Shown here piece after piece: positions 4,170 to 59,792 of a stretch of 64,000 nucleotides of DNA (its first letter is position 1; every line of letters starts with the position of its first letter). The notes under the pieces are model-generated. The model was given only the letters and a program-made list of their open reading frames with translations, had not been told where the DNA came from and made no database searches. Made by a program: the position numbers and the translations under genes. This DNA comes from a virus (Duplodnaviria; Heunggongvirae; Uroviricota; Caudoviricetes): IMG/VR virus record IMGVR_UViG_3300025429_000011, positions 18,527 to 82,526 of that record; one strand, given 5' to 3'.

Positions 4170-4180
4170 ATTTTAACCTC

Positions 4181-4188
4181 AATAAATA
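4181..4188 (+). promoter_or_regulatory. T4-type late promoter variant AATAAATA upstream of the giant fibre gene.
   Basis: Matches NATAAATA about 45 nt upstream of the ATG at 4235. This is the gp55-dependent late promoter consensus of T4-like phages. Confidence 0.4.
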
Positions 4189-4234
4189 CATTGTATACTA
4201 CTAATATATATTATCTTAATTAATTAGGCAACAT

Positions 4235-7200
4235 ATGTCATCAGATATTTTAAATCAGCATCTAATCGGTAATGGAAGTAACACTCAATTCACCTTATTA
4301 GAAGCTGTTGCCAATACTAGCTCTATTCTAGTAACTATCAACGGTCTAGTATCAGATCCTGACAGAGATTATACGGTTTCAGATAATTTATTATTATTTA
4401 ATACCGCTCCATATAGTACTTCAGATATTGAAATTAGATATTTACCTGTAGTTCCCGTAGGATATACTGGGTCTGCAGGTGAACCTGCTGGTTACACTGG
4501 TTCTGCAGGACCAGTAGGAGCTCCTTCAGATATTCAGACTATAGTAGCTACTGGTTCATCTTATTACACTTTAACATCTACTCCTAATTCTTCTAAAAAT
4601 ATATTAGTATCTGTAAATGGACTCTTACAGGTTCCAGAAGCTGATTATACTGTTTCTGGTTCTACTATTAATTTTAATACTATACCAGTAGAATTATCTG
4701 ACATTGAAATAATTTATTTTGGTAATGTTGTAGGTTATAGAGGTTCTGCAGGGTTTCAAGGTTCTGTCGGATTTACAGGTTCTATTGGTTACAGTGGTAA
4801 TGATGGATACACTGGTTCGATTGGTTACACAGGTTCTATAGGTGGTGCAGGTCCAGCTGGTTACACAGGTTCTGGTGGTGTAGCAGCCCCATCTGGTTTT
4901 CAAACATTTTTAACAGATAATAGAACTTCTTATCCTATTGATAGGGTAGTAGCATCATCTAAAGATATCTTAGTTTCCGTTAACGGGTTAATACAAGTAC
5001 CTGACGCAGACTATATTGTTGTTGGTTCTAATATTAACTTTATAACAAAACCAAGTAATAATTCTGATGTAGAAATTTTATACTTTGATGTTGCAGGGTT
5101 TATTGGTTCTACTGGTTATCTTGGTTCAACTGGGTTTAAAGGTTCTTCCGGTGACAACGGCTTACCAGGTTTCGTAGGATCCCAAGGTTATACAGGCTCT
5201 TCTGGTTTTGTCGGTTCTATGGGGTATGTTGGTTCTGGTGGTGTTGCCGCACCTTCAGAAATACAAACTATAGTTGCTGATGGTTCTAGTACATATACTT
5301 TAACAAGATATGTTGTTGATCCTAAACATATTTTTGTTATCGTTAACGGTCTTATTCAGATTGCAGATAGAGATTATACTGCAGCTGCAACTACCCTTAC
5401 TTTCTATAATCCTCCTAATAATACTTCTGAAATTGAAATAATTTATTTTGAAGAAGCATTAGGATATCGAGGTTCTGTAGGTTATGCAGGTTCTGCAGGT
5501 ACACCTGGAGGATCTACTGGTTATACTGGTTCTAGAGGAACTGACGGTTCCTTTGGATATACGGGTTCTACTGGTTATGTTGGTTCTGCTGGTGTTGGAG
5601 CTCCTTCTTCATATCAAATTTTATATGCAAATGGCTCTAATACAGTATTTACGTTAACATCTTCTGTTGATGCAGCTAAAAATATCCTTGTTTCTGTTAA
5701 CGGTCTATTACAAATACCAGATACCGATTATACTGTATCCGGAACAACTATTTTATTTACTAATCCACCTAGTGATACTTCTCATATTGAAGTTTTATAT
5801 TTTGATGTTTCTGGATATAGAGGTTCCACTGGTTATATGGGATCTAAAGGTGATCCTGGCGGTGATACTGGTTATACTGGCTCTATAGGTCCAAAAGGTG
5901 ATATTGGTCCATTAGGTTATACTGGTTCTGTTGGATTTGGTTACACAGGTTCTGCAGGCCCTGTAGGTGCACCAACAAATTATCAAACTATTGTTACAAC
6001 ATTTAATCAATCAACTTATAGTTTAAATCAAGATGTTGCACAAGCAGTAAGTATAATCGTTACTATAAACGGTCTTGTTCAAGTACCAGATCAAGACTAT
6101 ACCCTTCCTACTTCTAATACAATTACATTTACCAATACTCCAAATCCTAATTCTGATGTTGAAATTTTATATTTTTCTGCATCAGGATTTACTGGATCAA
6201 GAGGTGCAGTAGGCTATCTAGGTTCAGTAGGTTATCAAGGTACTGTTGGTTTTAGCGGGTCGGCTGGTATTACTGGTTATATGGGATCTGCAGGGTCTGG
6301 GTTTACTGGCTCTATAGGTTATTCAGGATCTACAGGGTTTGCAGGATCTAGAGGAAGTTTAGGTTATACCGGCTCTATTGGTATTGGATACACAGGTTCA
6401 GTTGGTTCTGGTTATACTGGTTCTACTGGTGCTGGGTATACCGGCTCTATCGGTTCATTAGGTTATACTGGTTCACAAGGATTTCAAGGTCTTACTGGTT
6501 ATAGAGGTTCTACTGGTAGTACTGGTTTTGTAGGTTCTATTGGTTTAACAGGATCTATAGGTTATACAGGCTCTACTGGTGCCGGATTTGTTGGTTCTAG
6601 AGGTTTTGTTGGTTCTATTGGTTCACTAGGTTACACCGGATCTATTGGATTTACAGGTTCTATTGGTTATTCTGGTTCTAGAGGTGATATTGGTTTCTCT
6701 GGTTCAATAGGCTCGTTAGGTTATACAGGTTCTATTGGTATTGGATATACCGGTTCTACAGGAGCCCCTGGTGGTATTACGTATAACTATAGATTCATTA
6801 ATACACCTGTTGTTACTCCTGCATTTACTCAACAAGGTTATGCAGTTTTTAGTGCAACATCAAATGCTATTTACGTTACATCTGCTGACCTAGCAGGAGC
6901 AAATACTGCATACTTTATAGAGTATGCATTAAAATCAGTTAATAATAGTATAAAAGGGTTTGTAACTTTATCAAGAGCTTCGACACCTTATGATGTTACA
7001 ATATATTCAACTAACACTGCTATCTATTTCCCTTATCCTGCAGTACCTGCATTTCATAAAATATATCTTTCTTATCTGTCTGGTAATACTACACCTTACT
7101 TAGACAATGAAATAATTAACATTTCATTTACGTTAACTGGAAGTCAAGGACCTAAAGGTGATAAGGGCGATATTGGTTATACTGGTTCTGCAGGTCCAGC

Positions 7201-10200
7201 TGGTCCTTCTGGTGCATTTGCTGGTATGGGTTATACCGGTTCTATTGGTTCATTGGGTTATTCTGGATCTATTGGATATACTGGTTCTATAGGTATACAA
7301 GGTTCAATTGGCCCACAAGGCTACACAGGCTCTGTTGCTAACCCATCAGCTCCTGTAAGACAGAACTTTAACGGTGACGGTGTAACTAACACATACAGTA
7401 TTGATATCGGTCAAAACGTTAACGGTTATACACCTTATCAATTAGACGTTTATATTAACGGTGTAAAACTCTTTAACGGTATAGATGTCGATGTATCATC
7501 TGGTAATACCATACACTTTATTACCCCACCGAGAAAAGATGATAATATCGAAGTTGTAGGGTCATATATTTTCTCTACAAACCCAGATAGTGCAGCATTA
7601 TTTGGACCTAGAGGTTATACTGGGTCTGCTGGTCCACCTAACGGATATCAAGGATCTTTAGGTGAAACTGGCTATGTAGGTTCTAGAGGTTATACAGGTT
7701 CAACACCTAATCCTTCTGCACCTGTAAGACAAAATTTTAACGGTGATGGTACAACCAATACTTACTATATTGATATTGGTCAGAATGTAAATGGTTATAC
7801 ACCTTATCAGCTAGATGTTTATGTCAACGGTGTTAAGCTTTTCAATGGTATTGATGTTGATGTATCTTCTGGTAACTCTATTCATTTTATTACACCACCT
7901 AGAATAAACGATAACATTGAAATAGTTGGATCTTATATCTTTTCAACTAATCCAGACAGTGCTGCATTGTTTGGTCCAAGAGGGTATACTGGATCTCAAG
8001 GTCCACCAAACGGGTATCAAGGTTCTATTGGTGACATTGGTTATACTGGTTCTAGAGGCGATACTGGGTTTTCTGGTTCTGCTGGTACTATTGGTTACTC
8101 TGGTTCTGGTGTAAGTTTTAGAAGTTACTATAATAATACTACAAATTACTATATTAATGATTTAGTAGAAGAAGATGGTGCCACTTACATTGCTATTGCA
8201 CCTAGTATAGGAGAAGATCCTAAAACTAGCAACACATACTGGCAATTATTTGCTAGCAAAGGATATCAAGGTTCTAGAGGTTATACAGGTTCTACTCCTA
8301 ACCCATCGTCTCCTGTAAGACAAAACTTTAACGGTGATGGTGTTTCTAGAACTTATTATATTGATATTGGGCAAAATGTCAATGGTTATACTCCTTACGA
8401 GTTAGATGTATTCGTAAACGGTATTAAATTGTTTAACGGTCTTGATGTTGATGTATCATCTGGTAATGCTATTCACTTTGTAATACCGCCGAGAATAAAC
8501 GATAATATCGAAGTAGTAGGGTCATATATTTTCTCTACTAATCCTGATCAAAATGCATTATTTGGGCCAAGAGGTTATACTGGTTCAGCAGGATTAAACG
8601 GGGCTGGTAATTCATTTACTAAAATTGTTGTTAGCGGTCAACCAGATTTAGTAGCATTAGAAGCAGATACTCTTCAAATAGTTGCTGGTGATAATATAGT
8701 TATATCAACTAACAATATTAATTCACCTAAAACTTTAACAATTTCTACATCACTGCCATCTGGTGCATCTGGTTATACAGGTTCGCAAGGTATAACGGGT
8801 TATATAGGTTCTATAGGAATTACCGGTTATACAGGATCAAGAGGATCTGATGGTGTTATAGGTTATAGTGGAAGTATAGGTTTCACAGGTTCTAAAGGGT
8901 CTGATGGCACTATAGGTTATACAGGATCGCAAGGTAATATAGGAAATACTGGAGATACTGGCTATACCGGATCAAGTGGAATAGACGGTGCAGTAGGTTA
9001 TAATGGAAGTATAGGGTTCACAGGTTCTAAAGGGTCTGATGGTACTATAGGTTATACTGGATCTACAGGACCTGTAGCCGGATATGATACTCAAATTATA
9101 TTTAATGATGGTAGTTATGCTAATGGTTCTTATGGATTAACTTATAATAAATCTACTCAAACATTAAACATAGGAAATAATCTTTATGTAGGTGGTAACA
9201 TTTATATCACCGGCAACACTACAACTTTTGCTGCTAATAATTTAGAAATAGTAGATAATATGATCTACTTAAATTCTAATAGTGAATATTCAAATCCCGA
9301 TATTGGTTTTGCTGCAAATTATAATGACGGTGAATATCATCATACCGGTTTCTTTAGAGATCATGCAACAGGTATTTGGAAGGTATTTGAAAATTATAAA
9401 CCAGAACCGCAAGCATCACAATTTATTGATCAATCTAATAATACCTTTAGAATAGCAGATTTTCAAGCAAATACTATTTTTGCTAATTCAATATATGCAA
9501 ATGGTTCTTACGGTTCTTTTGGTCAAGTACTTATTTCTAATGGTTCAGGAATATTCTGGTCAACTTCTGCATTAGGGTTTAATGGTTCAACAGGGTATCA
9601 AGGTTCTTTAGGTGATACTGGCTACAAAGGTTCAATTGGTTACCAGGGTTCAGTTGGTAATCAAGGTATTTTTGGTTACCAGGGTTCTTCTGGCTACCAA
9701 GGATCAGTTGGTTATCAAGGAACTGTAGGTTTTCAAGGTTCAGCTGGCGCTACCGCCGATGCTGGTTATCAAGGAAGTGCAGGTTATCAGGGATCAGTAG
9801 GATTTCAAGGATCTTATGGATATCAAGGTACTGTAGGATTCCAAGGTTCTATAGGAGCTGTTGGATATCAAGGATCAGCAAGTGTTGGCTATAACGGTTC
9901 TACTGGATTTAATGGTTCTATAGGTAATAGAGGTCCTATAGGTTATACTGGATCAAAAGGTCAAGGATTTAATTGGAGAGGAGCTTGGGACGGAACACAT
10001 AATGATTTTGGTGATTATCAAGTATACCTTCCTTATGATGTAGTACAATATGATCTAAACACATATGTTTGTATAGTATTATGTTATGGTGATTCTGGTA
10101 CTCCTGCTGCAAGAACAGATTTATGGCAGATATTTGCAGAAGGTGTAGTAGGTTATGTTGGATCTAAAGGTCAAGATGGTGTACTGGGTTATAATGGTTC

Positions 10201-10858
10201 TATAGGTTATACAGGCTCAAAAGGTGATAATGGCGTTATTGGATATAACGGTTCTATAGGATATACAGGTTCTACTGGATTTGTTGGATCTTCTGGAGCA
10301 TCAGTTTATCAAGGCTATACTGGATCTACTGGTTATCAGGGTTCTAAAGGTGAAAGTTCTTATATTACCTCTGATACTGCACCTTCTAGTCCTTTAGTTG
10401 GAGATAGATGGTATAATACTACAGCTGGTATTGAACTAGTATGGACTTATGATGGTAATTCTTATCAGTGGGTAGAATTAGCTGCAAGCGGTTTCTTAGG
10501 TATGACCGGATATTCTGGTTCAATAGGAACTATAGGGTATACAGGTTCAGCTGCACAATCATTAATAAATTCAACTCAAAGTTCAATTTATGTTTTACAA
10601 TCTTCGGATGATGGTAAATTAATTAATACATCTTATAGCGTTACTATACCTTCAAATGTATTTACAGCAGGTCAGACAATTACAATATATAACAGTAGCC
10701 AAACTAACGGTATTACAGTTACTCAAGGAAGCGGCACAACCGTATATTTGGTTAATACTACTTCTGTTGGAGACAGAACAGTAGGAGTAAATGGTATTGC
10801 AGTTATAATATGCGTGGATAATAATACTTTTGTTATTTCTGGTGGTGGTGTATCTTAA
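4235..10858 (+). CDS. Giant (2207 aa) collagen-like tail-fibre or whisker-like structural protein. It has many G-X-Y runs (GYTGSIGYTGS..) interspersed with repeated beta-rich modules.
   Basis: Continuous ORF with collagen triplet periodicity. Six copies of an ILVSVNGLLQVPxxDYTVSG..EIIYF module sit in the N-terminal third. Three near-identical ~95-aa modules (NPSAPVRQNFNGDG..) follow in the middle. Confidence 0.85.
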   Translation: MSSDILNQHLIGNGSNTQFTLLEAVANTSSILVTINGLVSDPDRDYTVSDNLLLFNTAPYSTSDIEIRYLPVVPVGYTGSAGEPAGYTGSAGPVGAPSDIQTIVATGSSYYTLTSTPNSSKNILVSVNGLLQVPEADYTVSGSTINFNTIPVELSDIEIIYFGNVVGYRGSAGFQGSVGFTGSIGYSGNDGYTGSIGYTGSIGGAGPAGYTGSGGVAAPSGFQTFLTDNRTSYPIDRVVASSKDILVSVNGLIQVPDADYIVVGSNINFITKPSNNSDVEILYFDVAGFIGSTGYLGSTGFKGSSGDNGLPGFVGSQGYTGSSGFVGSMGYVGSGGVAAPSEIQTIVADGSSTYTLTRYVVDPKHIFVIVNGLIQIADRDYTAAATTLTFYNPPNNTSEIEIIYFEEALGYRGSVGYAGSAGTPGGSTGYTGSRGTDGSFGYTGSTGYVGSAGVGAPSSYQILYANGSNTVFTLTSSVDAAKNILVSVNGLLQIPDTDYTVSGTTILFTNPPSDTSHIEVLYFDVSGYRGSTGYMGSKGDPGGDTGYTGSIGPKGDIGPLGYTGSVGFGYTGSAGPVGAPTNYQTIVTTFNQSTYSLNQDVAQAVSIIVTINGLVQVPDQDYTLPTSNTITFTNTPNPNSDVEILYFSASGFTGSRGAVGYLGSVGYQGTVGFSGSAGITGYMGSAGSGFTGSIGYSGSTGFAGSRGSLGYTGSIGIGYTGSVGSGYTGSTGAGYTGSIGSLGYTGSQGFQGLTGYRGSTGSTGFVGSIGLTGSIGYTGSTGAGFVGSRGFVGSIGSLGYTGSIGFTGSIGYSGSRGDIGFSGSIGSLGYTGSIGIGYTGSTGAPGGITYNYRFINTPVVTPAFTQQGYAVFSATSNAIYVTSADLAGANTAYFIEYALKSVNNSIKGFVTLSRASTPYDVTIYSTNTAIYFPYPAVPAFHKIYLSYLSGNTTPYLDNEIINISFTLTGSQGPKGDKGDIGYTGSAGPAGPSGAFAGMGYTGSIGSLGYSGSIGYTGSIGIQGSIGPQGYTGSVANPSAPVRQNFNGDGVTNTYSIDIGQNVNGYTPYQLDVYINGVKLFNGIDVDVSSGNTIHFITPPRKDDNIEVVGSYIFSTNPDSAALFGPRGYTGSAGPPNGYQGSLGETGYVGSRGYTGSTPNPSAPVRQNFNGDGTTNTYYIDIGQNVNGYTPYQLDVYVNGVKLFNGIDVDVSSGNSIHFITPPRINDNIEIVGSYIFSTNPDSAALFGPRGYTGSQGPPNGYQGSIGDIGYTGSRGDTGFSGSAGTIGYSGSGVSFRSYYNNTTNYYINDLVEEDGATYIAIAPSIGEDPKTSNTYWQLFASKGYQGSRGYTGSTPNPSSPVRQNFNGDGVSRTYYIDIGQNVNGYTPYELDVFVNGIKLFNGLDVDVSSGNAIHFVIPPRINDNIEVVGSYIFSTNPDQNALFGPRGYTGSAGLNGAGNSFTKIVVSGQPDLVALEADTLQIVAGDNIVISTNNINSPKTLTISTSLPSGASGYTGSQGITGYIGSIGITGYTGSRGSDGVIGYSGSIGFTGSKGSDGTIGYTGSQGNIGNTGDTGYTGSSGIDGAVGYNGSIGFTGSKGSDGTIGYTGSTGPVAGYDTQIIFNDGSYANGSYGLTYNKSTQTLNIGNNLYVGGNIYITGNTTTFAANNLEIVDNMIYLNSNSEYSNPDIGFAANYNDGEYHHTGFFRDHATGIWKVFENYKPEPQASQFIDQSNNTFRIADFQANTIFANSIYANGSYGSFGQVLISNGSGIFWSTSALGFNGSTGYQGSLGDTGYKGSIGYQGSVGNQGIFGYQGSSGYQGSVGYQGTVGFQGSAGATADAGYQGSAGYQGSVGFQGSYGYQGTVGFQGSIGAVGYQGSASVGYNGSTGFNGSIGNRGPIGYTGSKGQGFNWRGAWDGTHNDFGDYQVYLPYDVVQYDLNTYVCIVLCYGDSGTPAARTDLWQIFAEGVVGYVGSKGQDGVLGYNGSIGYTGSKGDNGVIGYNGSIGYTGSTGFVGSSGASVYQGYTGSTGYQGSKGESSYITSDTAPSSPLVGDRWYNTTAGIELVWTYDGNSYQWVELAASGFLGMTGYSGSIGTIGYTGSAAQSLINSTQSSIYVLQSSDDGKLINTSYSVTIPSNVFTAGQTITIYNSSQTNGITVTQGSGTTVYLVNTTSVGDRTVGVNGIAVIICVDNNTFVISGGGVS
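4300..6200 (+). repeat. Six diverged copies of a ~40-aa module (I[LI]V[ST][IV]NGL[LIV]Q[VI]PDxDYT..[ST][DE][IV]E[IV][IL]YF), alternating with collagen G-X-Y stretches, period ~350 nt.
   Basis: Read directly in the protein translation at residues ~30, 120, 250, 365, 480 and 590. Confidence 0.7.
7327..8575 (+). repeat. Three tandem near-identical ~95-aa domain repeats (NPSAPVRQNFNGDGVTNTYSIDIGQNVNGYTPYQLDVYINGVKLFNGIDVDVSSGN.IHFITPPR..NIEVVGSYIFSTNPDSAALFGPRGYTGS).
   Basis: Copies begin at about nt 7331, 7715 and 8282. They are ~85-90% aa identical, with many synonymous nucleotide differences. Confidence 0.8.
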
Positions 10859-25383: not shown

Positions 25384-25765
25384 AGATATTATTTCACAAT
25401 CCTTAGGATTAGAACCTTTAAACGATGAGATTATAAATCAAGTAGTTGTACCACCTTCTACTATTAAAAATGATTATGATTATGCCAGAGATAATCTTTA
25501 TAATATAATAGAAAAAGGTAATACTGCATTAGAAGATATTATGGATATTGCTAAACAGTCTGAGTCAGCGCGCGCATTTGAAGTAGTAACTAATCTTATT
25601 AAAACTATGGTTGATGCTAATAAAGATCTTTTAGAACTTGCTAAAAAGAAAAAAGAATTAGATAAAACTGAGCAACCAGAACAAACTAATGTAACAAATA
25701 ATAATCTGTTTGTTGGTTCATCTGCAGAACTACTTAAAATGATTAAAGATAAAGCTAATGGCTGA
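25376..25765 (+). CDS. 16: Terminase small subunit gp16.
   Basis: NDYDYARDNLYNIIEKGNTALEDIMDIAKQSESARAFEVVTNLIKTM resembles T4 gp16 ([47 protein letters not shown]). It lies immediately upstream of gp17. Confidence 0.7.
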   Translation: MAKDIISQSLGLEPLNDEIINQVVVPPSTIKNDYDYARDNLYNIIEKGNTALEDIMDIAKQSESARAFEVVTNLIKTMVDANKDLLELAKKKKELDKTEQPEQTNVTNNNLFVGSSAELLKMIKDKANG

Positions 25766-27347
25766 TATTTACCTAGGTAATAAAAATCTTAAAAATAAAG
25801 ATGTAAAAATATCTTTTACTCCAGAACAAATGGCAGAATTCTGGAAATGTGCTAATGATGTTGATTATTTTTGTGAAACATATGTAAAAATTGTATCTGT
25901 AGATAAAGGTTTGGTTCCATTTAAACCATTTCAATATCAAAAGAATATGTTTAAAACTTTTAATGATAATAGATATACAATTTGTAAAATGCCTCGTCAG
26001 GTCGGTAAGACAACTGGTGTTGTAGGTTATTTACTACATAAGATTCTTTTTAATGAAAATTATAACATAGCAGTTCTTGCTAATAAACAAGTACAGGCTA
26101 GAGAAATTCTTTCACGAATTCAACTTGCATATGAATGGTTACCTAAATGGCTTCAACAAGGAGTAGTTGAGTGGAATAAAGGTAACATTGAACTTGAAAA
26201 TGGTTCTAAGATACTTGCATCTGCTACATCATCATCTGCTGTTCGTGGTCAATCTTATAACTTAGTTTATCTTGACGAGTTTGCTTTCGTGCCTCGTAAT
26301 GTTCAAGATGCATTCTTTGCCTCAGTATTTCCTACAATATCTTCTGGTAATACATCTAAGCTTCTTATAACATCTACACCTAATGGAATGAATTTATTCT
26401 ATAAACTGTGGGTTGATTCAGAAAATGGTAACAATGATTATGCACGAGTAGATGTTCATTGGTCTGATGTTCCTGGAAGAGACCAAGCCTGGGCTGATCA
26501 AATGATCCGTAGTACATCTATAGATCAATTTAGACAAGAATTTGAATGTGAATTTTTAGGATCTGCTAACACTCTTATTCATCCTTCTGCAATGGCTAAA
26601 TTAACATTTATAAATCCAATTTCTGTAAATCAAGGTGTAAAATTATTTAAACAACCAGAAAAAGATCACGTATATGTTATGATAGTAGATGTGGCAGAAG
26701 GACTAGGTCTTGATAGTTCCGCTTTTGTAGTTGTAGATATCACTATTAATCCATACGAGGTAGTTGCAACATATCAAGATGCTAGTATTTCTCAGTTAAT
26801 GTTTCCTAATGTACTTTATAATGTAGGAAGATATTTCAATGAAGCTGCTATTTTAGTTGAAACTAATATTGGATCACAGGTTGTTAATATTTTACAACAA
26901 GATTTAGAATATGAAAATGTCGTAATGACTAAAACTAACGGTAGAAAAGGTACTGTTATTGGTAGCGACGGTTTATCTAAATTAGGTGTAAAAACTACTA
27001 AATCAGTTAAAAGAATAGGTTGCGCAAATCTTAAGTCTATTATAGAAAATCAAAAAATAATATTAAATGATTATGATGTAATAAATGAACTTTCAACTTA
27101 TGTAATGGATGGTTCTTCTTATAATGCAGAAGACGGGTATCACGATGATTTAGTTATGTGTATGGTGCTTTTTGCATGGTTGATAAATCAGCCATATTTT
27201 AAAGATATTTCTAATTCTGATATTAGATTACTATTGCTAGAAGGCCAAGAAGAAAACTTTACTCCTTTTGGATTTATTGATGATGGTCAAGAAGATCTAA
27301 ATAGAGTATTAAACGATTCAGAATTTGCAAATTTTCTTCTAAATTGA
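25758..27347 (+). CDS. 17: Terminase large subunit gp17 (ATPase + nuclease).
   Basis: Walker A is KMPRQVGKTT and Walker B is LVYLDEFAFV. Size 529 aa; the T4 gp17 C-terminal nuclease region is conserved. Confidence 0.9.
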   Translation: MADIYLGNKNLKNKDVKISFTPEQMAEFWKCANDVDYFCETYVKIVSVDKGLVPFKPFQYQKNMFKTFNDNRYTICKMPRQVGKTTGVVGYLLHKILFNENYNIAVLANKQVQAREILSRIQLAYEWLPKWLQQGVVEWNKGNIELENGSKILASATSSSAVRGQSYNLVYLDEFAFVPRNVQDAFFASVFPTISSGNTSKLLITSTPNGMNLFYKLWVDSENGNNDYARVDVHWSDVPGRDQAWADQMIRSTSIDQFRQEFECEFLGSANTLIHPSAMAKLTFINPISVNQGVKLFKQPEKDHVYVMIVDVAEGLGLDSSAFVVVDITINPYEVVATYQDASISQLMFPNVLYNVGRYFNEAAILVETNIGSQVVNILQQDLEYENVVMTKTNGRKGTVIGSDGLSKLGVKTTKSVKRIGCANLKSIIENQKIILNDYDVINELSTYVMDGSSYNAEDGYHDDLVMCMVLFAWLINQPYFKDISNSDIRLLLLEGQEENFTPFGFIDDGQEDLNRVLNDSEFANFLLN

Positions 27348-27352
27348 TTTTT

Positions 27353-27360
27353 TATAAATA
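27353..27360 (+). promoter_or_regulatory. Canonical late promoter TATAAATA upstream of gp18.
   Basis: Exact TATAAATA 47 nt upstream of the gp18 ATG. An AGGAG RBS follows. Confidence 0.5.
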
Positions 27361-27406: not shown

Positions 27407-29509
27407 ATGCCATTTCAAGTAAGTCCTGGTGTAAACGTATCAGAAATTGACTTGACAACAATCGTACCTGCAGTATCTACTACAACTGGTGCGTTTGCTG
27501 GAACATTCAGATGGGGTCCTGTAGATCAGGCATTCCTAGTATCTTCTGAAGATGAACTAGTTCAATATTTCGGTAAGCCTACAGCCAACAATTACGAAAC
27601 ATTTTTTACTGCAGCTAACTTCCTAGCTTACGGTAATCAATTATATATTTCTAGAGCAGCTAATACTGGAACATATAATGCTTATGCATATACTGGCGGT
27701 ACTGCTGCAAACGTAACAGTAAGAAATTCTGATGATTTTAATATTCAAAGTGGATCTTTCTCTTCTAATCAGCCATTTATTGCTAAGTATCCAGGTGCCC
27801 TAGGTAATTCTCTAAGAATTTCTATTTGCCCTACTGCAAATGCCTATAGCAGCATGCTAACAGCTGCAAATATGGCTAATAATTCACCAAATGGTAATGC
27901 AGCTACTTATGCTGCTAATACTACTGCACAATTCATGCTAGATATTGGTTCTAGTGTAGCTAACATAGTAGTTAATTGTGCTAATACATCTGGTTTCGGT
28001 GCATTATTTGCTAATGATTCTGCATTTAACATATATTCAAACATCAACTTAAATGATTACATTAAAGTAGGAGATGCAACTACAGGTGTACAATATATGC
28101 AAGTTGCATATTCTACAATACCAGTCGTTGATCCTTCTAACGTACAACAATATTGGTTTAATATTGGTTTTACTGATGTATTAAAAGTAAAATCTGGTAT
28201 TAATATGTCTTATCTTGGTGGAAACACTGCAGTTACTAGATTCTGGGAATTTTATAATGCAGTTGATGGTGCACCTGGTGTTTCTAATTACGTAAATCAA
28301 CGCACTTCTAATAATGCAATTAGAGATCAACTTCATATTGTTGTTGTTGATAATCAAGGTGTTATTACCGGTGTGCCTAATCAAATTTTAGAAGTATGGC
28401 CTAACCTTTCTCGTGCAACTGATGCAAAAGGTGAACAAGGTGGTTCAATTTATTACCGTCGCGTATTAGATCAATCATCTAGATATGTTTGGGCAGCTAC
28501 AGATTATGTTGGTTCAGGTGTTACTAATAATCAGCTACAACCTCCTAACTTTAGCGCACCACACTATATAAACTTTGTAAAAGGTACAGATGGTCCAACA
28601 GAAAGTGATATTTCAATATCTGCAGTAGCAACAGCATATGATGTATTTGCTTCAGCAGAAAGTATTGATATTTCATTAGTATTAACTGGTAAAGCTTCAA
28701 TATCAGCAGGGTCTGGAGAAGTTCTTCCAAATTACCTAATTGATAATATTGCTGAATCAAGAAGAGATTGCGTAGTTTTCGTATCTCCTCCTTATGAATC
28801 TGTAGTAGGTGTACCCGGTTTTGAAGGATCTAATTTAGTTGCATTCCGTAATTTATTAAGATCCTCTTCATACTCTGTACTTGATTCTGGTTACAAATAT
28901 CAATATGACAAGTATAACGATACTTACCGTTGGGTTCCACTAAATGGTGATATTGCCGGTCTATGTGTAAGAACTGATAATACACGTGATCCATGGTACT
29001 CACCAGCTGGGTTTAACAGAGGTCAGGTAAAAAATGTTGTTAAATTAGCATTTAATCCAAATCAAGCTAACCGCGACCTTCTTTATAAGAATGGTGTTAA
29101 TCCAGTTGTTACATTCCCAGGTCAAGGAACTGTATTGTATGGGGATAAGACAATGTTAGCACAACCTTCTGCATTTGATCGTATTAACGTACGTAGATTG
29201 TTCATTGTGCTTGAAAAAGCAATTTCTACTGCTGCTAAGTTTGCTCTATTTGAATTCAATGATGATTTTACTAGAGCAGCATTCCGCAACCTCGTTGAAC
29301 CATATCTAAGAGATGTTCAAGGTCGTCGTGGTATCTATGACTTTAAGGTAGTTTGTGACGCAACAAACAATACGCCAGAAGTTATTGACGGAAATAGATT
29401 TGTAGGAGATATTTACATTAAACCAGCACGCTCAATTAACTTCATTCAGCTTAACTTCGTTGCAGTACGCACCGGTGTTCAGTTCGATGAAATTGTTGGT
29501 AAGTTCTAA
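27407..29509 (+). CDS. 18: Tail sheath protein gp18.
   Basis: N-terminal SPGVNVSEIDLTT..TTGAFAGTFRWGP matches T4 gp18 (SPGIELKETTVQ..GTAALAGKFQWGP). 700 aa. Confidence 0.9.
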   Translation: MPFQVSPGVNVSEIDLTTIVPAVSTTTGAFAGTFRWGPVDQAFLVSSEDELVQYFGKPTANNYETFFTAANFLAYGNQLYISRAANTGTYNAYAYTGGTAANVTVRNSDDFNIQSGSFSSNQPFIAKYPGALGNSLRISICPTANAYSSMLTAANMANNSPNGNAATYAANTTAQFMLDIGSSVANIVVNCANTSGFGALFANDSAFNIYSNINLNDYIKVGDATTGVQYMQVAYSTIPVVDPSNVQQYWFNIGFTDVLKVKSGINMSYLGGNTAVTRFWEFYNAVDGAPGVSNYVNQRTSNNAIRDQLHIVVVDNQGVITGVPNQILEVWPNLSRATDAKGEQGGSIYYRRVLDQSSRYVWAATDYVGSGVTNNQLQPPNFSAPHYINFVKGTDGPTESDISISAVATAYDVFASAESIDISLVLTGKASISAGSGEVLPNYLIDNIAESRRDCVVFVSPPYESVVGVPGFEGSNLVAFRNLLRSSSYSVLDSGYKYQYDKYNDTYRWVPLNGDIAGLCVRTDNTRDPWYSPAGFNRGQVKNVVKLAFNPNQANRDLLYKNGVNPVVTFPGQGTVLYGDKTMLAQPSAFDRINVRRLFIVLEKAISTAAKFALFEFNDDFTRAAFRNLVEPYLRDVQGRRGIYDFKVVCDATNNTPEVIDGNRFVGDIYIKPARSINFIQLNFVAVRTGVQFDEIVGKF

Positions 29510-29523: not shown

Positions 29524-30075
29524 ATGGCATTTAATATCAACGACATTCGTGCCCAACTTACACTTGGTGGTGCGAGACCTAGTTTATTCCAGGTTATTAT
29601 TAGTAACCCAGTTAATCCAATTGCAGATCTAAAGTTGCCTTTCCTATGTAAGGCAGCTCAACTTCCTGCTTCATCTTTAGGCACTATTGAAGTACCATAC
29701 TTTGGTAGAAAGCTTAAGATTGCTGGAGATCGTAAATTTGATCCATGGACTGTTACTATCATCAATGATGAAGATTTCTTAGTAAGAAATGCTATGGAAA
29801 CTTGGAATAACTCAATTCAACTTTATCAACAAAATATTACTGCTCTCGGAACTTCTGCACCAGCTGTGTATAAGTCTCAAGCAACTGTAACTCAGTTTGG
29901 TAAAGACGGTACAATTCTAAGAACATATCAATTCAATGGTATCTTCCCTGATCAAATCTCAGCTATTGATTTGGCATGGAATACTACTGATGAAATTGAA
30001 GATTTCCAAGTATCATTCCAGTATGACACATTCGAAGTATTGAATAGTATTACTGGTAATGCTGGTGGCGCTTAA
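29524..30075 (+). CDS. 19: Tail tube protein gp19.
   Basis: RPSLFQV..CKAAQLPAS..GRKLKIAGDRKFDPWTVTIINDE matches T4 gp19 (RPNLFQVEIS..CKATALPAG..NRKINVAGDRTFDDWTVTVMNDE). Confidence 0.9.
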   Translation: MAFNINDIRAQLTLGGARPSLFQVIISNPVNPIADLKLPFLCKAAQLPASSLGTIEVPYFGRKLKIAGDRKFDPWTVTIINDEDFLVRNAMETWNNSIQLYQQNITALGTSAPAVYKSQATVTQFGKDGTILRTYQFNGIFPDQISAIDLAWNTTDEIEDFQVSFQYDTFEVLNSITGNAGGA

Positions 30076-30085
30076 GAAATAATTT

Positions 30086-30120
30086 AAAAGAGACCCTATA
30101 AATACAATAGGGTCTCTTTA
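30086..30120 (+). terminator. Stem-loop (9-bp perfect stem agagaccct/agggtctct) after gp19. Its loop contains the late promoter TATAAATA (30097-30104) for gp20, and the stem is followed by a T-rich tract.
   Basis: aagagaccctataaatacaatagggtctctttactttctt was read directly. Confidence 0.5.
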
Positions 30121-30143
30121 CTTTCTTAAGGAAAATTATTATT

Positions 30144-31736
30144 ATGGTACAATTATTTGGATTTGAAATCAACCGCAAGGTTAAAGAACCAATAGAATCA
30201 TTTGCACCTCCTGTAAATGATGATGGCGCAGTAATTGTTGCAGCCGGTGGTGCATATGGCACCTATATTGATTTAGATGGTACTGCACGTACTGAATCAG
30301 AACTAGTTTCCAAATATCGCGAAATTGCATTAGAAGCAGATATCGAAAGAGCTGTTGACGATATTGTCAATGAAGCCATTGATACTGATGCAGAGAAAAT
30401 TGTAGAAATTAATCTTGATAAAATTAAATATAGTGAAAATGTAAAAGAAAAAATTAGAGAAGAATTTGAAATTATAATTGAACTTCTTAATTTTCATAAT
30501 GAAGCATATGATCTCTTTAAAAGATGGTATATTGATGGCAGAATGTATTTCCATGCTATCATAGACGAAAAAAACCCTAGAGAAGGTATTAAAGAGCTTC
30601 GTTATATTGATCCTAGAAAAATTCGTAAGATAAGAGAAATTAAAAAGAAAACTAAAGGTGATACTACGGTTGCTTATGCTAATCGCGAGTATTATGTATA
30701 TAATGAGCGTAATTTTTTACCTGCTGGTGGTAATGCAGGTCTTCCAATGGATGCAGGCGCTGTTAATGGCGTAAAAATTGCTGCAGACTCTATTATTCAT
30801 GTTACATCTGGTTTAATGGATAAAAACAACGCATTTGTTTATTCATACCTTCAAAAAGCTATTCGCCCTCTTAATCAATTACGTACATTAGAAGATGCAA
30901 CCGTTATTTACCGCATCTCACGTGCTCCAGAGCGTCGTATTTTTTATATTGATGTTGGCAATCTTCCTAAGATTAAAGCTGAACAATATATGAGAGACAT
31001 GATGACTAAACATAAGAATCGTTTAGTCTATGATGCTACTACCGGTGAAGTTCGTGATGATCGTAAATATATGACGATGCTAGAAGATTATTGGTTGCCA
31101 AGAAGAGAAGGTAATCGTGGTACAGAAATTACTACTCTTCCAGCAGGTCAAAATTTAGGTGAGATGGCAGACGTTACATACTTTCAACAGAAGTTATATC
31201 AATCTCTTAACGTTCCTGTATCGCGTCTTCAATCATCTTCTGAAGTATTCAGTTTAGGAAAAGCTACTGAAATTTCTAGAGATGAAGTAAAGTTTGTTAA
31301 GTTTGTAGGACGTCTGAGAAAAAGATTCTCTCATCTTTTAATGAAATCATTAGAAAAGCAATTAATTCTTAAAGGAATAGTATCTGAAAATGATTGGAAT
31401 GAATTATCTAATCAAATTAATTTTGATTTTGCAATAGATAGTCATTTTGAAGAATTTAAAGATACAGAAATATTACAAAGTAGATTAGCTAATCTAACAG
31501 AAATACAGCCTTTTATTGGTAAGTATTTTTCTGAAGAATGGGTAAGAAAAAATATACTTCATCAAACAGATAAAGACATAGAAGATATGATGGCTCAAAT
31601 AGAAGCAGAGGTATCTAATCAGCCCGAGCCAGACGTAGAAACACAACCAGCTGAACAGCCTGCTAATGCTAATAACAACATTAAAATACATGTAACAAGT
31701 TCAGCAGTACCAACTGTAGATGGTGCTGGTAGATAA
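30144..31736 (+). CDS. 20: Portal vertex protein gp20.
   Basis: 530 aa (T4 gp20 is 524 aa). Lies between gp19 and the prohead genes. Conserved portal core regions. Confidence 0.85.
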   Translation: MVQLFGFEINRKVKEPIESFAPPVNDDGAVIVAAGGAYGTYIDLDGTARTESELVSKYREIALEADIERAVDDIVNEAIDTDAEKIVEINLDKIKYSENVKEKIREEFEIIIELLNFHNEAYDLFKRWYIDGRMYFHAIIDEKNPREGIKELRYIDPRKIRKIREIKKKTKGDTTVAYANREYYVYNERNFLPAGGNAGLPMDAGAVNGVKIAADSIIHVTSGLMDKNNAFVYSYLQKAIRPLNQLRTLEDATVIYRISRAPERRIFYIDVGNLPKIKAEQYMRDMMTKHKNRLVYDATTGEVRDDRKYMTMLEDYWLPRREGNRGTEITTLPAGQNLGEMADVTYFQQKLYQSLNVPVSRLQSSSEVFSLGKATEISRDEVKFVKFVGRLRKRFSHLLMKSLEKQLILKGIVSENDWNELSNQINFDFAIDSHFEEFKDTEILQSRLANLTEIQPFIGKYFSEEWVRKNILHQTDKDIEDMMAQIEAEVSNQPEPDVETQPAEQPANANNNIKIHVTSSAVPTVDGAGR

Positions 31737-31779: not shown

Positions 31780-32049
31780 ATGGCGGATATAGAAGATCTT
31801 TTAGTTCATGCTTGGAATAAAGATGCGGTAAATCTTAAGCCTGCATTAGATGATATTATGACAGCAAAAGTAGCAGAAAGAATGGATGATACATTCATGG
31901 ATGTTGCTGCTTCAATTTATGGTAGTACTGATGGTGATCCTAATAATGAACCTCTAGACGGCGATTCAGATTTAGATACACAAGATAACACAGATAACGA
32001 AGGAACCCCAGAAGATGCCGATGAATTTGAAGCAAATAATCAAGAGTAA
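31780..32049 (+). CDS. Small very acidic protein (gp67-like prohead core protein candidate).
   Basis: MADIEDLL...DGDSDLDTQDNTDNEGTPEDADEFE is highly acidic. Position matches T4 gp67 between gp20 and gp21. A strong RBS precedes the ATG at 31780. Confidence 0.5.
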   Translation: MADIEDLLVHAWNKDAVNLKPALDDIMTAKVAERMDDTFMDVAASIYGSTDGDPNNEPLDGDSDLDTQDNTDNEGTPEDADEFEANNQE

Positions 32050-33931
32050 GTTGTTTGAAGTAGAACAACCACAATCTCAGGGTGAGAAAAATTTCAAAGC
32101 CCTTCACAAGGCAGTTGACCATAAGAACTTGGTTCCTGGGGTTACTGATCAAGACCATGTTTTTAACGGTTCAACAAAACCATATGACAACAAATATCTT
32201 AACTCATATAAGCCAGGCGAAGATCGTACTGCTTATGATAAGACATTAAAGTTAGACGATAAAGAAACAAATAATGGTTATGAAACTGCTAATGTAAAAG
32301 AAGCAATGGGTTCTATGATCGATAAAACACATAAAGATAGTCAACATAAAGCATCTTTTGGTTCATCAAACATTTCAGATATGATGAGAAAAGAAAAACA
32401 AAGAAAAGCTGCTGCAGAAGGCAAAAGAAATTCTTCTTTATCATCTAGAGCATCTTCAAATAGACAAGTACATTCTGAAGAAGTAGAAACTACAGATGAA
32501 AATTATTTTAGATCAAATAATCAAACATCATTTCATAAAAGAGAAAAGATGTATAAATTAGCTTCTAACAAGCCATTTCATAGTGATATGCAAACACATA
32601 TTATACATGTTCATGCTTCTAAAGATGGCGGACCTGTAGAAGTTCATAAAGAAAAAATTCAAGCAAAAGATAAACATAAAGCAATGACTGATGCTCAATT
32701 TAAATATTCACCTAAAAAAGGCTATAAAATTAGTGATACAAAATATAAAGGTGTAATGAAAGAAGAAATTGAGCTTCTTGACGAAGCCGCTTGGACTGAA
32801 AAGAATTTGCCTGCTGGTAATTATAATCAAGGCGGTCATACTGAAAAAGGCGACCTTCATCATATTGAAGTACATCCAGAAGTACTTAAGAAGCATGGCA
32901 TTTCACATCAAGTATCACATGCCGGTGAATATGGACAGACTCATCATTTTGAGCATCCATCACATGGTAAGGTAGCAGTGTATCAATCAGATTTAAATAA
33001 AAAGACAGGCAACCCAATTATGTCAGTTAGAACTTATGGCCCACAAGGTGCTAAGCCAGTCGCTCATAAATTTGCTAAAAAATTATCTGGAAATATGATG
33101 CATTCTTATAGTGAATCAGTAAATGAAGATTATGATGATACACCAGAAGAAGTATCAATGGTAAGAACTGAACTTAGAGCAATTATTAATGATGCACAAA
33201 GTCTTTTAGATAATATGCCATCAAACATGCACATTGAACCATGGGTACAATCTAAAATTGCAGTAGCAAAGTCTATGGTTTGTGGTGTACATGACTATAT
33301 GTTATATTCTGATGATGCAGGTGTGCCTTCTGATCAAAGAGTTGCTCCTATGCCTTCTATGTCTAATCCTTTTATGTCTAGTGAAGAAACTACTCCTTCA
33401 CAAAAGAAAAAAATGATGAAAGATGTGCCAGTAGCTGGAACTATGAGTCCTTCAGAAGGTGCTTCAGTTATTACTAAAGAAGAAACAGATGTAGTAGATG
33501 AAAAACTTTCAGATGAGAAATTAAAGAAGTTTGCTAAACTAGCTCCTCCTTATGATAAAATTACACATGCTGATAAAATTGTAGCAGTAAAGAAAAAAGA
33601 AGCTGGACAAAAAATTCTTCCAGAAGCTTCTATGCTAGGTAAAGAATGTTCTGAATGTAATGATGGTCATTATAAAGAAGAAAAAGGTAAAATGGTTTGC
33701 GATGAATGCGGTCATATGGCTAAAAATGAAATGAAAGAAGCTTCTGTTATTAAGAGTCATGCTATGAATATGGCTAAACAGGCTCTTCATAAATTAAAGC
33801 CAAAAATGAAGTACACTATGCATACTAAAATGAAAACACCAAAAGAACATATTAAGATGGATGAAAGTATTCTTTCTGATGAAGAAAAAGCTCGTCTTGA
33901 TTCTATCATGAATACAGAAATGGGAGAATAA
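32015..33931 (+). CDS. Lys/His-rich 638-aa protein with a C-terminal CxxC..CxxC zinc ribbon. Candidate internal head / prohead core protein.
   Basis: His-rich tracts (HIIHVHASKDGGPVEVHKEK; HHIEVHPEVLKKHGISHQVSHAGEYGQTHHFEHPSHGK) and CSECNDGHYKEEKGKMVCDECGH. It lies between the portal and the prohead protease. Confidence 0.5.
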   Translation: MPMNLKQIIKSKLFEVEQPQSQGEKNFKALHKAVDHKNLVPGVTDQDHVFNGSTKPYDNKYLNSYKPGEDRTAYDKTLKLDDKETNNGYETANVKEAMGSMIDKTHKDSQHKASFGSSNISDMMRKEKQRKAAAEGKRNSSLSSRASSNRQVHSEEVETTDENYFRSNNQTSFHKREKMYKLASNKPFHSDMQTHIIHVHASKDGGPVEVHKEKIQAKDKHKAMTDAQFKYSPKKGYKISDTKYKGVMKEEIELLDEAAWTEKNLPAGNYNQGGHTEKGDLHHIEVHPEVLKKHGISHQVSHAGEYGQTHHFEHPSHGKVAVYQSDLNKKTGNPIMSVRTYGPQGAKPVAHKFAKKLSGNMMHSYSESVNEDYDDTPEEVSMVRTELRAIINDAQSLLDNMPSNMHIEPWVQSKIAVAKSMVCGVHDYMLYSDDAGVPSDQRVAPMPSMSNPFMSSEETTPSQKKKMMKDVPVAGTMSPSEGASVITKEETDVVDEKLSDEKLKKFAKLAPPYDKITHADKIVAVKKKEAGQKILPEASMLGKECSECNDGHYKEEKGKMVCDECGHMAKNEMKEASVIKSHAMNMAKQALHKLKPKMKYTMHTKMKTPKEHIKMDESILSDEEKARLDSIMNTEMGE

Positions 33932-37087: not shown

Positions 37088-38470
37088 ATGAACGGTTTAA
37101 ATGAAGAATTAGTTGCAAAGTGGAAGCCAGTGCTTGAGCACTCAGATCTTCCAAGAATTGCTGACGCCCACAAGCGTTCAGTAATTGCTACACTTCTAGA
37201 AAATACTGAAAAGGAAATGCGTTCTGAAGCAATGGCACGTGGTTCTTATAACGGTATTACATCTCTTAACGAAACTGGTATCAATGCTGTTGGTACTGGC
37301 GGTTATGGTTCAGCTGGCGGCTCAGGCGTTGCTGGTTACGATCCAATCCTTATCTCATTGATTCGTCGTGCAATGCCTAATCTTATTGCTTATGACGTTT
37401 GCGGTGTTCAACCAATGACTGGTCCAACTGGACTTATCTTTGCTATGCGTTCACAATATGCAAACTCAACTGCAAAAGGTTCAGAAACATTCTATGACGA
37501 AGTTAACACTGGTATGTCATCTGGCTTCAATGGCACTGGCGTATTTGGTCAAGGTACTGGTTCAGGCATTGGTGCTAACAACGTTGGTTCAACACCTGAC
37601 AACACTGGCGGTGTTGGTTCATACAACTATCAAGCTGGTGCTCCTACATCAACAGCAGAAGCTTTTGGTACAGGTACTACATTCCCAGAAATGGCCTTCT
37701 CAATTGATAAGGTTTCTGTAACTGCAGTATCACGTGCTCTAAAGGCAGAATACACTATTGAATTGGCACAAGATCTAAAGGCTATCCATGGATTGGATGC
37801 TGAGACTGAATTGTCAAACATTCTTCAGTCTGAAATTCTTGCTGAAATCAATCGTGAAGTTATTCGTGCTATTAACATTACTGCACGTCAAGGTGCTACA
37901 GACGGTACTACACAAGCTGGTATCTTCGATCTTGATACTGATTCAAACGGCCGCTGGTCAGTTGAAAAGTTCAAGGGTCTTATGTTCCAACTTGAAAGAG
38001 AAGCTAACAAGATCTCAAAAGACACACGTCGTGGTAAGGGTAACCTAGTTATCTGCTCTTCAGATGTTGCATCTGCTCTTCAGATGGCTGGCGTACTTGA
38101 CTATACACCTGCTCTTGCTTCTAACAACCTACAAGTTGATGATACTGGCAATACATTCGCTGGTGTTCTAAACGGACGCTTCAGAGTATATGTTGATCCA
38201 TATACAACTGGTAACTATATGACTGTTGGCTATAAGGGTGCTAATGCATTCGATGCAGGTATCTTCTATTGCCCATACGTTCCACTACAAATGGTTCGTG
38301 CAGTTGGTCAAGCAGACTTCCAACCAAAGATTGGATTTAAGACTCGTTATGGAATGGTAGCAAATCCATTTGCTCGTTCACAACAAGGTTCACCAAATCT
38401 TTCAGACGGTACACTATCTGCTTCTACTAACAGCTACTATCGTAGAACAATCATCCAAAACATCTTCTAA
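37088..38470 (+). CDS. 23: Major capsid protein gp23.
   Basis: AYDVCGVQPMTGPTGLIFAMR matches the T4 gp23 motif (VQPM.SPTGQVFALR). 460 aa. Confidence 0.9.
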   Translation: MNGLNEELVAKWKPVLEHSDLPRIADAHKRSVIATLLENTEKEMRSEAMARGSYNGITSLNETGINAVGTGGYGSAGGSGVAGYDPILISLIRRAMPNLIAYDVCGVQPMTGPTGLIFAMRSQYANSTAKGSETFYDEVNTGMSSGFNGTGVFGQGTGSGIGANNVGSTPDNTGGVGSYNYQAGAPTSTAEAFGTGTTFPEMAFSIDKVSVTAVSRALKAEYTIELAQDLKAIHGLDAETELSNILQSEILAEINREVIRAINITARQGATDGTTQAGIFDLDTDSNGRWSVEKFKGLMFQLEREANKISKDTRRGKGNLVICSSDVASALQMAGVLDYTPALASNNLQVDDTGNTFAGVLNGRFRVYVDPYTTGNYMTVGYKGANAFDAGIFYCPYVPLQMVRAVGQADFQPKIGFKTRYGMVANPFARSQQGSPNLSDGTLSASTNSYYRRTIIQNIF

Positions 38471-38496: not shown

Positions 38497-38529
38497 CTAA
38501 AAAAGGCCCCGAAAGGGGCCTTTTTCTTT
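38497..38529. terminator. Bidirectional rho-independent terminator with a 7-bp GC stem and a GAAA tetraloop (aaaaaaggccccgaaaggggcctttttcttt).
   Basis: An A-run and a T-run flank the GC-rich hairpin. It lies between the convergent gp23 (+) and the minus-strand block. Confidence 0.8.
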
Positions 38530-57165: not shown

Positions 57166-57177
57166 TTGAAATACATG

Positions 57178-57214
57178 AGGTTCTTTTCAGTTGATTTTTT
57201 ACTGAAAAGAACCT
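57178..57214 (+). terminator. Perfect 14-bp stem hairpin (aggttcttttcagt / actgaaaagaacct) with a 9-nt T-rich loop, after folE.
   Basis: Read directly. An A/T-rich tract follows. Confidence 0.5.
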
Positions 57215-57250
57215 ATTATTATAATTATAGGAAGAAATGGAGAATCACCT

Positions 57251-57463
57251 ATGATTAATCTTGATCAATACGTTAAAGCAGTTTGGGATGCAAAGACTGA
57301 CGCAGATAAACGTACTGCAATGGAGGCATTAGTAGATGCTTCTCATGCCAAAAAAGAAACTAAAATTCTTACCAAGCTTAAAATTAAAACTCTGTATGGC
57401 AAAAAGCTAGACTCTTTTGCTACCAACTATGCTTTTTCTGGTGAAGGTATGAAGGTAAGTTAA
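57251..57463 (+). CDS. Hypothetical small protein.
   Basis: 70-aa ORF with a GGAGAA RBS. Confidence 0.4.
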   Translation: MINLDQYVKAVWDAKTDADKRTAMEALVDASHAKKETKILTKLKIKTLYGKKLDSFATNYAFSGEGMKVS

Positions 57464-57464
57464 G

Positions 57465-59554: not shown

Positions 59555-59792
59555 TAAAGATGCAATTAGACCTAATCATTATAAAGGTAAAGGTAAATAC
59601 GAATGCATCGATGTAATTGAAGATCTCTGCAATACTTCTACTAATGATCGATTTACTGACTACAATAGGTTTCAAGCTTTTAAATATGTCTGGCGTGCAG
59701 GTAATAAAGATCCTGTAATTCAGGATCTTAAGAAAGCTATTACGTTTTTAGAATTTGCAATTGCATATGAGGAAAAGAAAAATGTCAAGTAA
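59538..59792 (+). CDS. Hypothetical small protein.
   Basis: 84-aa ORF. Confidence 0.35.
   Translation: MSAKDNKDAIRPNHYKGKGKYECIDVIEDLCNTSTNDRFTDYNRFQAFKYVWRAGNKDPVIQDLKKAITFLEFAIAYEEKKNVK

Follow-up and report, generated by a model that had tools for sequence, protein, structure and literature searches.

In bacteriophage T4 and its relatives, late promoters and hairpins have been found combined in more than one way. In T4 e, soc, I-TevI/II/III, and segB, and in Aeh1 mobE, a late promoter is embedded in the 5′ portion of a hairpin that sequesters the ribosome binding site (RBS); these hairpins occlude the Shine-Dalgarno sequence or the AUG and thereby silence translation of early or middle read-through RNA (PMC2988022, PMC3014915). 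The motif of T4-family late promoters occupies positions −13 to −6 (PMC1524935), and other T4-like phages conserve its first T poorly (PMC1524935, PMC2988020). A different kind of composite is represented by the promoter-early stem-loops (PeSLs) of T4-type phages, in which a stem-loop and a promoter share an intergenic spacer; PeSLs carry sigma-70 early promoters, occur in many copies in hyperplastic regions, and are implicated in gene shuffling (PMC4122927).

Hairpins and late promoters also stand side by side in T4. A canonical terminator upstream of gene 9 is followed by TATAAATA 6 nt downstream, a hairpin upstream of gene 19 is followed by the same motif after 1 nt, and in the orthologous 19-20 spacer the motif lies 24 nt downstream of the hairpin. 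We analyzed 64,000 nucleotides (here called the window) of an IMG/VR virus record (IMGVR_UViG_3300025429_000011, positions 18,527 to 82,526), in which TATAAATA lies within a terminator-like hairpin between the genes for gp19 and gp20. Like the T4 arrangements at genes 9, 19, and 20, this locus has a stem-loop after the upstream late gene and a TATAAATA for the next gene. However, the T4 promoters lie 1 to 24 nt past a complete hairpin and do not overlap it, whereas the promoter of the window lies inside the hairpin and its predicted start falls in the 3′ arm. The pair of hairpin and late promoter is ordinary for the T4 family; the nesting is the variant.

The switches of the e/soc/I-TevI type are the closest mechanistic analogue. 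In these, the late RNA lacks the 5′ strand and escapes the effect of the structure, and the same would apply to an RNA that begins at the start site predicted here. The window hairpin differs in that it ends 7 nt short of the Shine-Dalgarno sequence, carries a U-rich tail, and lies between two late genes, and the escape would be from termination rather than from translational masking. Early or middle read-through is not expected here, as the upstream genes (gp17, gp18, and gp19) encode late structural proteins and gp18 has its own TATAAATA at 27353, which suggests late timing; the element is not a member of the e/soc/I-TevI class. With PeSLs it shares the format of a small stem-loop and promoter composite in an intergenic spacer, but it is single-copy in the window, contains a gp55 late promoter, and is located in the conserved structural core. 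Canonical terminators occupy the same position in other T4-like phages (L046, L049, L061, and S-CAM7) and likewise consist of a hairpin and a U tract; they have 3- to 8-nt loops without a promoter and long unbroken U runs, whereas the loop in the window holds the promoter and the tail is weaker. A full-text literature search yielded no account of a terminator at the 19-20 junction whose loop holds a late promoter.

Anatomy of the gp19-gp20 spacer and its predicted late promoter

The window is a portion of a T4-like myovirus genome with 34% G+C. Its nearest nucleotide matches are cyanomyoviruses with ~70% identity. No close cultured relative was found, gp19 being less than 56% identical to that of any GenBank phage, and sequence comparison places the phage in an uncultured clade. 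The gene names gp18, gp19, and gp20 used in the preliminary description were borne out by PHROG matches to tail sheath (27407-29509, plus strand; PHROG 23, E = 3.9e-132), tail tube (29524-30075 in the list of open reading frames [ORFs], plus strand; PHROG 45, E = 2.5e-56), and portal (30144-31736, plus strand; PHROG 213, E = 8.4e-202). PHROG searches also placed the terminase large subunit at 25758-27347, the major head protein gp23 at 37088-38470, a UvsW-like helicase at 45772-47226, and a gp47-like nuclease subunit at 48399-49466. The expected reader of TATAAATA, the late sigma factor gp55, is encoded at 47628-48185 on the plus strand (PHROG 234, 'late sigma transcription factor', E = 5.5e-58). 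None of 10 candidate ORFs between 47 and 61 kb of this partial genome matched the coactivator gp33 or the sliding clamp gp45.

Other features of the gene content were recorded on the way. An ORF of 2207 amino acids (within 4235-10858) stands at the head of the structural block, and one of 638 amino acids (32015-33931) without a PHROG match lies between the portal gene and the prohead genes. A cluster at 56434-61469 resembles a 7-deazaguanine/queuosine pathway, with two GTP cyclohydrolase-like ORFs (PHROG 2197 and PHROG 5949) and a QueC-like ORF (PHROG 1550); judging from these genes, the phage may modify its DNA.

From the gp19 stop codon (TAA, 30073-30075, plus strand) to the gp20 start codon, the spacer reads TAA-gaaataattt-AAAGAGACCCTAT-AAATACA-ATAGGGTCTCTTT-ACTTTCTT-AAGGA-aaattattatt-ATG. 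It contains a 13-bp perfect inverted repeat that starts 11 nt past the stop codon and, together with its tail, occupies 30087-30127 (AAAGAGACCCTAT-AAATACA-ATAGGGTCTCTTT-ACTTTCTT). The 5′ arm (AAAGAGACCCTAT, 30087-30099) and the 3′ arm (ATAGGGTCTCTTT, 30107-30119) were delimited on the plus strand by sequence, folding, and covariation, and the 7-nt loop AAATACA (30100-30106) was delimited by folding and a repeat search. The stem includes 5 G-C pairs, and the 27-nt core hairpin has a free energy of −14.7 kcal/mol. Folding of 30070-30145 as RNA gave −24.7 kcal/mol (z = −6.9), a value reached by none of 200 shuffled sequences. The hairpin is followed by a U-rich tail (TTTACTTTCTT, 30117-30127, plus strand; T-tail score, 3.28), a putative release tract of a terminator, whose first three T residues are at the same time the last three positions of the stem.

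The preliminary description had reported a hairpin with a 9-bp stem and a 12-nt loop that held the promoter, followed by a T-rich tail. The hairpin is real and the tail is present as described, but the stem has 13 bp and the loop has 7 nt. The promoter is an exact TATAAATA (30097-30104, plus strand); rather than lying wholly in the loop, it straddles the boundary, its first 3 nt (TAT) closing the 5′ arm and its other 5 nt (AAATA) opening the loop. In the string 'agagaccct-TATAAATA' given earlier, one T had been counted twice, since the first T of TATAAATA (30097) also ends that arm.

Markov-1 simulations gave an expectation of 0.07 perfect inverted repeats per window (stem of at least 13 bp, loop of 3 to 12 nt), and three distinct ones were observed, including the gp19-gp20 hairpin. 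At 57178-57214, downstream of a GTP cyclohydrolase-like ORF, there is a perfect 14-bp hairpin (AGGTTCTTTTCAGT...ACTGAAAAGAACCT); behind it comes ATTATTATAATTATAGG, with a TATAAT, and from the sequence this could be a PeSL-like stem-loop with an early promoter. A repeat at the end of the window (63953-63985; 13-bp stem, 7-nt loop) and one with a 10-bp stem within ORF 1057-1389 (1190-1216) are also perfect and beyond chance expectation. Rfam yielded no match in the whole window at the gathering cutoff, and an 'evalue' scan of 29-31 kb gave only chance-level matches over the hairpin (Thr leader, mir-454, and RsaJ; E ≥ 0.09). Beyond chance, the window contains no further copy of the arm GAGACCCTAT, so that a repeated or mobile element of the PeSL or REP type was rejected. 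An ORF on the minus strand that spans the hairpin (30050-30262; 70 amino acids, GTG start) was regarded as a mechanical ORF only.

The promoter assignment was evaluated from the distribution of the motif. TATAAATA occurs six times in the window, always on the plus strand (6:0), compared to ~15 copies expected on both strands; it is both depleted and directional. Four of the six copies (19355, 27353, 30097, and 31748) are intergenic and lie 35 to 50 nt before an ATG with a Shine-Dalgarno sequence. The copy at 27353-27360 (plus strand) is located 46 nt before the gp18 ATG; the gp18-gp19 transcripts that run into the hairpin probably arise from it, and the intergenic copy at 31748 (plus strand) follows gp20. 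Across 415 kb of related IMG/VR loci, the gene strand carried 136 copies and the other strand 7; 83 copies were intergenic and at most 80 nt upstream of an ORF start, mostly at a distance of 38 to 53 nt. A strand-specific motif upstream of genes, together with a gp55 gene in the window, is the behavior expected of a T4-type late promoter. The assignment of a late promoter to gp20, as proposed initially, was thereby supported, and the constancy of the ATAAATA core amid diverging stems (see below) agrees with it.

The two remaining copies have other contexts. At 45731-45738, TATAAATA lies in a small hairpin (45728-45744) of a similar format (CTCTAT-AAATA-ATAGAG), in the 3′ end of ORF 45363-45797 and just before the UvsW-like helicase gene. 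Inside the 5′ portion of ORF 1386-4169 (minus strand), ~200 nt before the 2207-amino-acid ORF, there is a plus-strand copy at 4019-4026; either the start of ORF 1386-4169 is to be placed further in or this copy acts as a promoter from an unusual distance. A possible sigma-70 promoter at 30117-30145 (9 of 12 positions matching) was dismissed, as such matches occurred at chance frequency in the region (80 found versus 80.7 expected).

With the T4 rule for motif position (−13 to −6; PMC1524935), the late gp20 mRNA is predicted to start at G30110 on the plus strand, the 4th nucleotide of the 3′ arm. A start at this position lies past the 5′ arm; the gp20 transcript would lack that arm, and the hairpin would be unable to form in it. 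In 20 of 20 clade members, the motif starts 0 to 4 nt before the loop and ends 0 to 5 nt before the 3′ arm, and with the spacing borrowed from T4 the predicted +1 falls on nucleotides 1 to 6 of the 3′ arm in each of them.

Conservation of the hairpin among relatives

For comparison, 80 IMG/VR loci were fetched with gp19 as bait (gp19 identity, 57 to 91%), which provided 64 distinct gp19-gp20 spacers. A hairpin of −9 kcal/mol or better was present in 60 of them. The motif (T)ATAAAT(A/G) lay inside the hairpin in 25 spacers and upstream of it in 3, and 32 spacers had a hairpin without the motif. When 20 sequences of the window's clade were aligned, ATAAAT was invariant while the arms were almost wholly different, with pairs such as GAGACCC/GGGTCTC, GAGCTGC/GCAGCTC, GGGCCGTC/GACGGCCC, and AAGGGCTATC/GATAGCCCTT. 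The ATAAATA core in the hairpin is conserved as sequence.

In contrast to their sequence, the complementarity of the arms was retained. For the 13 named pairs in the 20 sequences, 92.9% of the cells were standard pairs, compared to 34 to 60% when the 3′ partner was slid by 1 to 3 columns. Both sides had changed in 8 of the 13 pairs, and the observed covariation score was reached by none of 500 shuffles. The shuffle control overstates significance because the sequences share descent, a weakness that does not affect the slide control. RNAalifold found the same helix independently, and 7 of its 10 pairs were compensatory. Among the inner pairs of the clade alignment there were 6 G.U and no A.C pairs, and an unbiased count over 50 distinct hairpins gave 10 G.U versus 3 A.C. 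This excess speaks modestly for a structure in the plus-strand RNA, rather than for one in minus-strand RNA or a DNA cruciform. Selection has kept the arms of the hairpin paired, most likely in plus-strand RNA.

These data also bear on the idea that the palindrome acts in DNA, either as an operator for a dimeric regulator or as a cruciform or single-strand hairpin that offers TATAAATA to the polymerase. The inverted repeat is centered on the promoter, which would suit such a role, and hairpin promoters exist, for example, among the early promoters of phage N4. However, the arms vary freely while their complementarity is kept, which points to a folded nucleic acid and not to a protein-binding site; the tolerance of G.U and the rarity of A.C favor plus-strand RNA over a cruciform; and the other late promoters of the window lack such a repeat. 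An operator or cruciform was therefore disfavored, and we regard action in DNA as very improbable.

The distribution of the element was examined on a neighbor-joining tree of gp19 and the N-terminal 250 residues of gp20. The nested arrangement was present in all sampled members of the window's clade (21 distinct sequences and the TATAAATG variant L026) and persisted down to ~64% gp19 identity. A second clade (L067, L070, L072, L074, and L076) also has the nested arrangement, and a further member of it, L059, carries CTAAATA, an Aeh1-type late-promoter variant, in a 16-nt hairpin loop. The remaining clades have hairpins without the promoter. The deep branches of the tree are unreliable, so that the nested arrangement of the two clades is compatible both with shared ancestry and with convergence. 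In the cultured cyanophage Synechococcus phage Bellamy (L082, 577-624), AATAAATA is located in a small hairpin without a U tract at the gp19-gp20 junction.

That a palindrome and an AT-rich octamer should have met here by chance and serve no function is scarcely credible in light of this distribution. AT-rich octamers are common in principle in a window of 34% G+C; yet TATAAATA is depleted and strictly one-stranded, the z score of the hairpin and the expected number of 13-bp repeats given above speak against coincidence, and the combination recurs throughout the clade of the window and again in a second one.

Several relatives have spacers of unusual makeup. L028 to L031 have a G+C-rich hairpin without a U tract, and TATAAATA lies upstream of it and shares bases with the gp19 stop codon; with the promoter in this position, the gp20 leader would hold the whole hairpin. 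Extra DNA is found between gp19 and gp20, directly after a canonical terminator hairpin, in L025 (~1.56 kb; 3180-4750) and in L055 (~280 bp with a small ORF; 3549-3830), and by analogy these insertions are reminiscent of stem-loop-associated gene shuffling. In the near relative L007 (775-860) the nested element is present, but the Shine-Dalgarno sequence and approximately the first 18 gp20 codons after it are apparently missing, which may reflect a deletion or an assembly artifact.

Terminator signature and translation of gp20

The tail of the window hairpin (UUUACUUUCUU) reached a d'Aubenton-Carafa T score of 3.28, which is attained by 1.1% of window positions (99th percentile), and a simple scan listed the hairpin as terminator-like. 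The U tract is interrupted (UUUACUUUCUU), and the d score was −4.8, just under the cutoff of 0 on a scale calibrated for E. coli. This borderline value makes attenuation more likely than a full stop. Throughout the plus strand of the 64 kb, a stable hairpin coincides with a T-rich tail at only two intergenic sites, the gp19-gp20 junction and the site after gp23. The latter, the sole other strong hairpin and T-tract site in the late gene block, is a strong bidirectional intrinsic terminator at 38500-38525 (AAAAAGGCCCC-GAAA-GGGGCCTTTTT) between gp23 and convergent minus-strand genes, with d values of +52.9 on the plus strand and +40.5 on the minus strand and its textbook site at 38505-38520.

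Among the relatives, a T score of at least 2.5 was found for 68% of the promoter-bearing and 53% of the promoter-less hairpins, compared to 4.7% of background positions. The d score was 0 or lower in 18 of the 25 promoter-bearing hairpins; it was above 0 in 12 of the 32 promoter-less hairpins at the gp19-gp20 junction versus none of 47 coding controls. Canonical terminators occupy this junction in many more distant relatives (for example, GGAGGCtttcGGGCCTCCATTTTTT). Where the promoter precedes the hairpin (three distinct spacers), the U tract is poor in every case, as would be expected if a promoter placed before an efficient terminator were useless. The claim of a terminator-like hairpin after gp19 thus gained support: the structure is conserved with compensatory changes, and its U-rich tail is far above background.

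The main rival to a partial terminator is pure 3′-end stabilization. According to this explanation, the hairpin acts mainly as a stabilizer of the mRNA 3′ end or as a processing barrier for gp18-gp19 and causes little termination, and the shortness of the spacer is the only reason for the nesting of the promoter. The U tract is absent from some relatives that retain the hairpin (for example, L018, L019, L023, and phage Bellamy, where the small hairpin still bears the motif), so that conservation extends further for the hairpin than for the signature of a terminator. Similarly, 38 of 57 stable hairpins with the motif inside or absent have a d score of 0 or lower, several of them lacking a U run, and the T4 hairpin before the gene 19 promoter also has no U tract. 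The enrichment of U-rich tails behind the hairpins (53 to 68% versus 4.7%) and the textbook terminators at the gp19-gp20 junction of many relatives argue against stabilization as the whole explanation, and we consider it unlikely. The two roles are compatible and do not exclude each other. From the sequence features of the window and its relatives, the element most likely acts as a partial terminator, or attenuator, and would also leave the 3′ end protected by the hairpin.

We also considered a translational switch of the T4 e/soc/I-TevI type, in which read-through RNA would mask the gp20 RBS and only transcripts from the nested promoter would be translated. As in the T4 cases, the late promoter lies in the 5′ half of the hairpin (PMC2988022, PMC3014915). 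In addition, the minimum-free-energy fold contains a possible outer helix between CUUAAGAAA (30071-30079, plus strand), which overlaps the gp19 stop codon, and UUUCUUAAG (30122-30130, plus strand), which overlaps the first 4 nt of the gp20 Shine-Dalgarno sequence (AAGGA, 30127-30131, plus strand; AAGGA in 17 of 20 relatives). Outer-type helices occur in many relatives, including compensatory variants such as TTAGAGA/TCTCTAA (L004) and ATAAGAT/ATCTTAT (L002), and support for the predicted outer helix is moderate.

However, several observations speak against masking. A gap of 7 nt separates the end of the inner 3′ arm (30119) from the Shine-Dalgarno sequence. The duplex between the two flanks had a z score of −2.9 in the window but a mean of only −1.1 over 20 relatives, with −0.5 or weaker in 7 of the 20 sequences, and the outer helices are composed of copies of the self-complementary CTTAAG. 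Partition function calculations predicted no gain in Shine-Dalgarno accessibility for the promoter-initiated RNA (0.35) relative to the read-through RNA (0.42; Wilcoxon P = 0.13). Furthermore, the temporal logic of the T4 switch is inapplicable because the upstream genes are themselves late. RBS masking was therefore rejected as the main function, the outer helix being weak and palindromic and the Shine-Dalgarno sequence being no more accessible in the short RNA, and a switch of this type is improbable.

Proposed transcription of the late block

The best reading of these data is a partial terminator or 3′ stabilizer for the gp18-gp19 mRNA that the nested late promoter would escape. We consider it probable, though well short of certain, that the gp19-gp20 junction of this T4-like phage is a nested terminator/late-promoter unit; the compact terminator/promoter composite of the preliminary description is supported in this respect by comparative evidence.

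Transcripts that originate at the 27353 promoter or further upstream would carry both arms, and the hairpin would fold as the polymerase reaches UUUACUUUCUU. A share of these transcripts would end at the hairpin, or the hairpin would shield their 3′ end, and gp18-gp19 mRNA would be enriched as a result. On the DNA, gp55-RNA polymerase would read TATAAATA at 30097-30104 and start at approximately 30110, within the 3′ arm. The resulting gp20 transcript would have a 34-nt leader without the 5′ arm, could not form the hairpin, and would be immune to the terminator. The position of the promoter flush with the 5′ arm can be understood from two constraints, as the loop must be small for stability and yet the start must fall past the 5′ arm.

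For the late block as a whole, the 27353 promoter would boost gp18 and gp19, the hairpin would shed or cap much of this flow, and the nested promoter would restart transcription for gp20. The TATAAATA at 31748 would then boost the prohead genes, and the terminator at 38500-38525 would close the unit after gp23. The T4 virion contains ~138 copies each of the gp18 and gp19 products, and the gp20 portal is present in 12 copies per virion. We infer that the element may tune the ratio of tube to portal expression.

A bolder version of this model would couple termination and reinitiation within the ~40-bp unit. The polymerase freed at the U tract, 10 to 20 bp past the promoter, would be recaptured by gp55, gp33, and the clamp, or hairpin-forming DNA or RNA would help to open TATAAATA. 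We rate such coupling as decidedly improbable. If it were true, gp20 output would be a fixed fraction of gp18-gp19 transcription and would not follow an independent promoter strength, and two clades of uncultured T4-like phages would have conserved the element as a built-in stoichiometry divider.

The nested terminator/late-promoter unit overturns nothing, since T4 itself nests late promoters in hairpins and sets terminators beside late promoters, and a T4 specialist would not be surprised by it. As a part, it could offer synthetic biology a compact insulator. For the phages themselves, it suggests that a streamlined T4-like phage could pack a stop or attenuation signal and a restart into ~40 bp, with a restart transcript that would be immune because it starts in the 3′ arm. 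This would constitute a concrete design for setting the ratio of very abundant tail proteins to a 12-copy portal, and a large clade of uncultured aquatic T4-like phages gains a candidate regulatory element that has the support of covariation.
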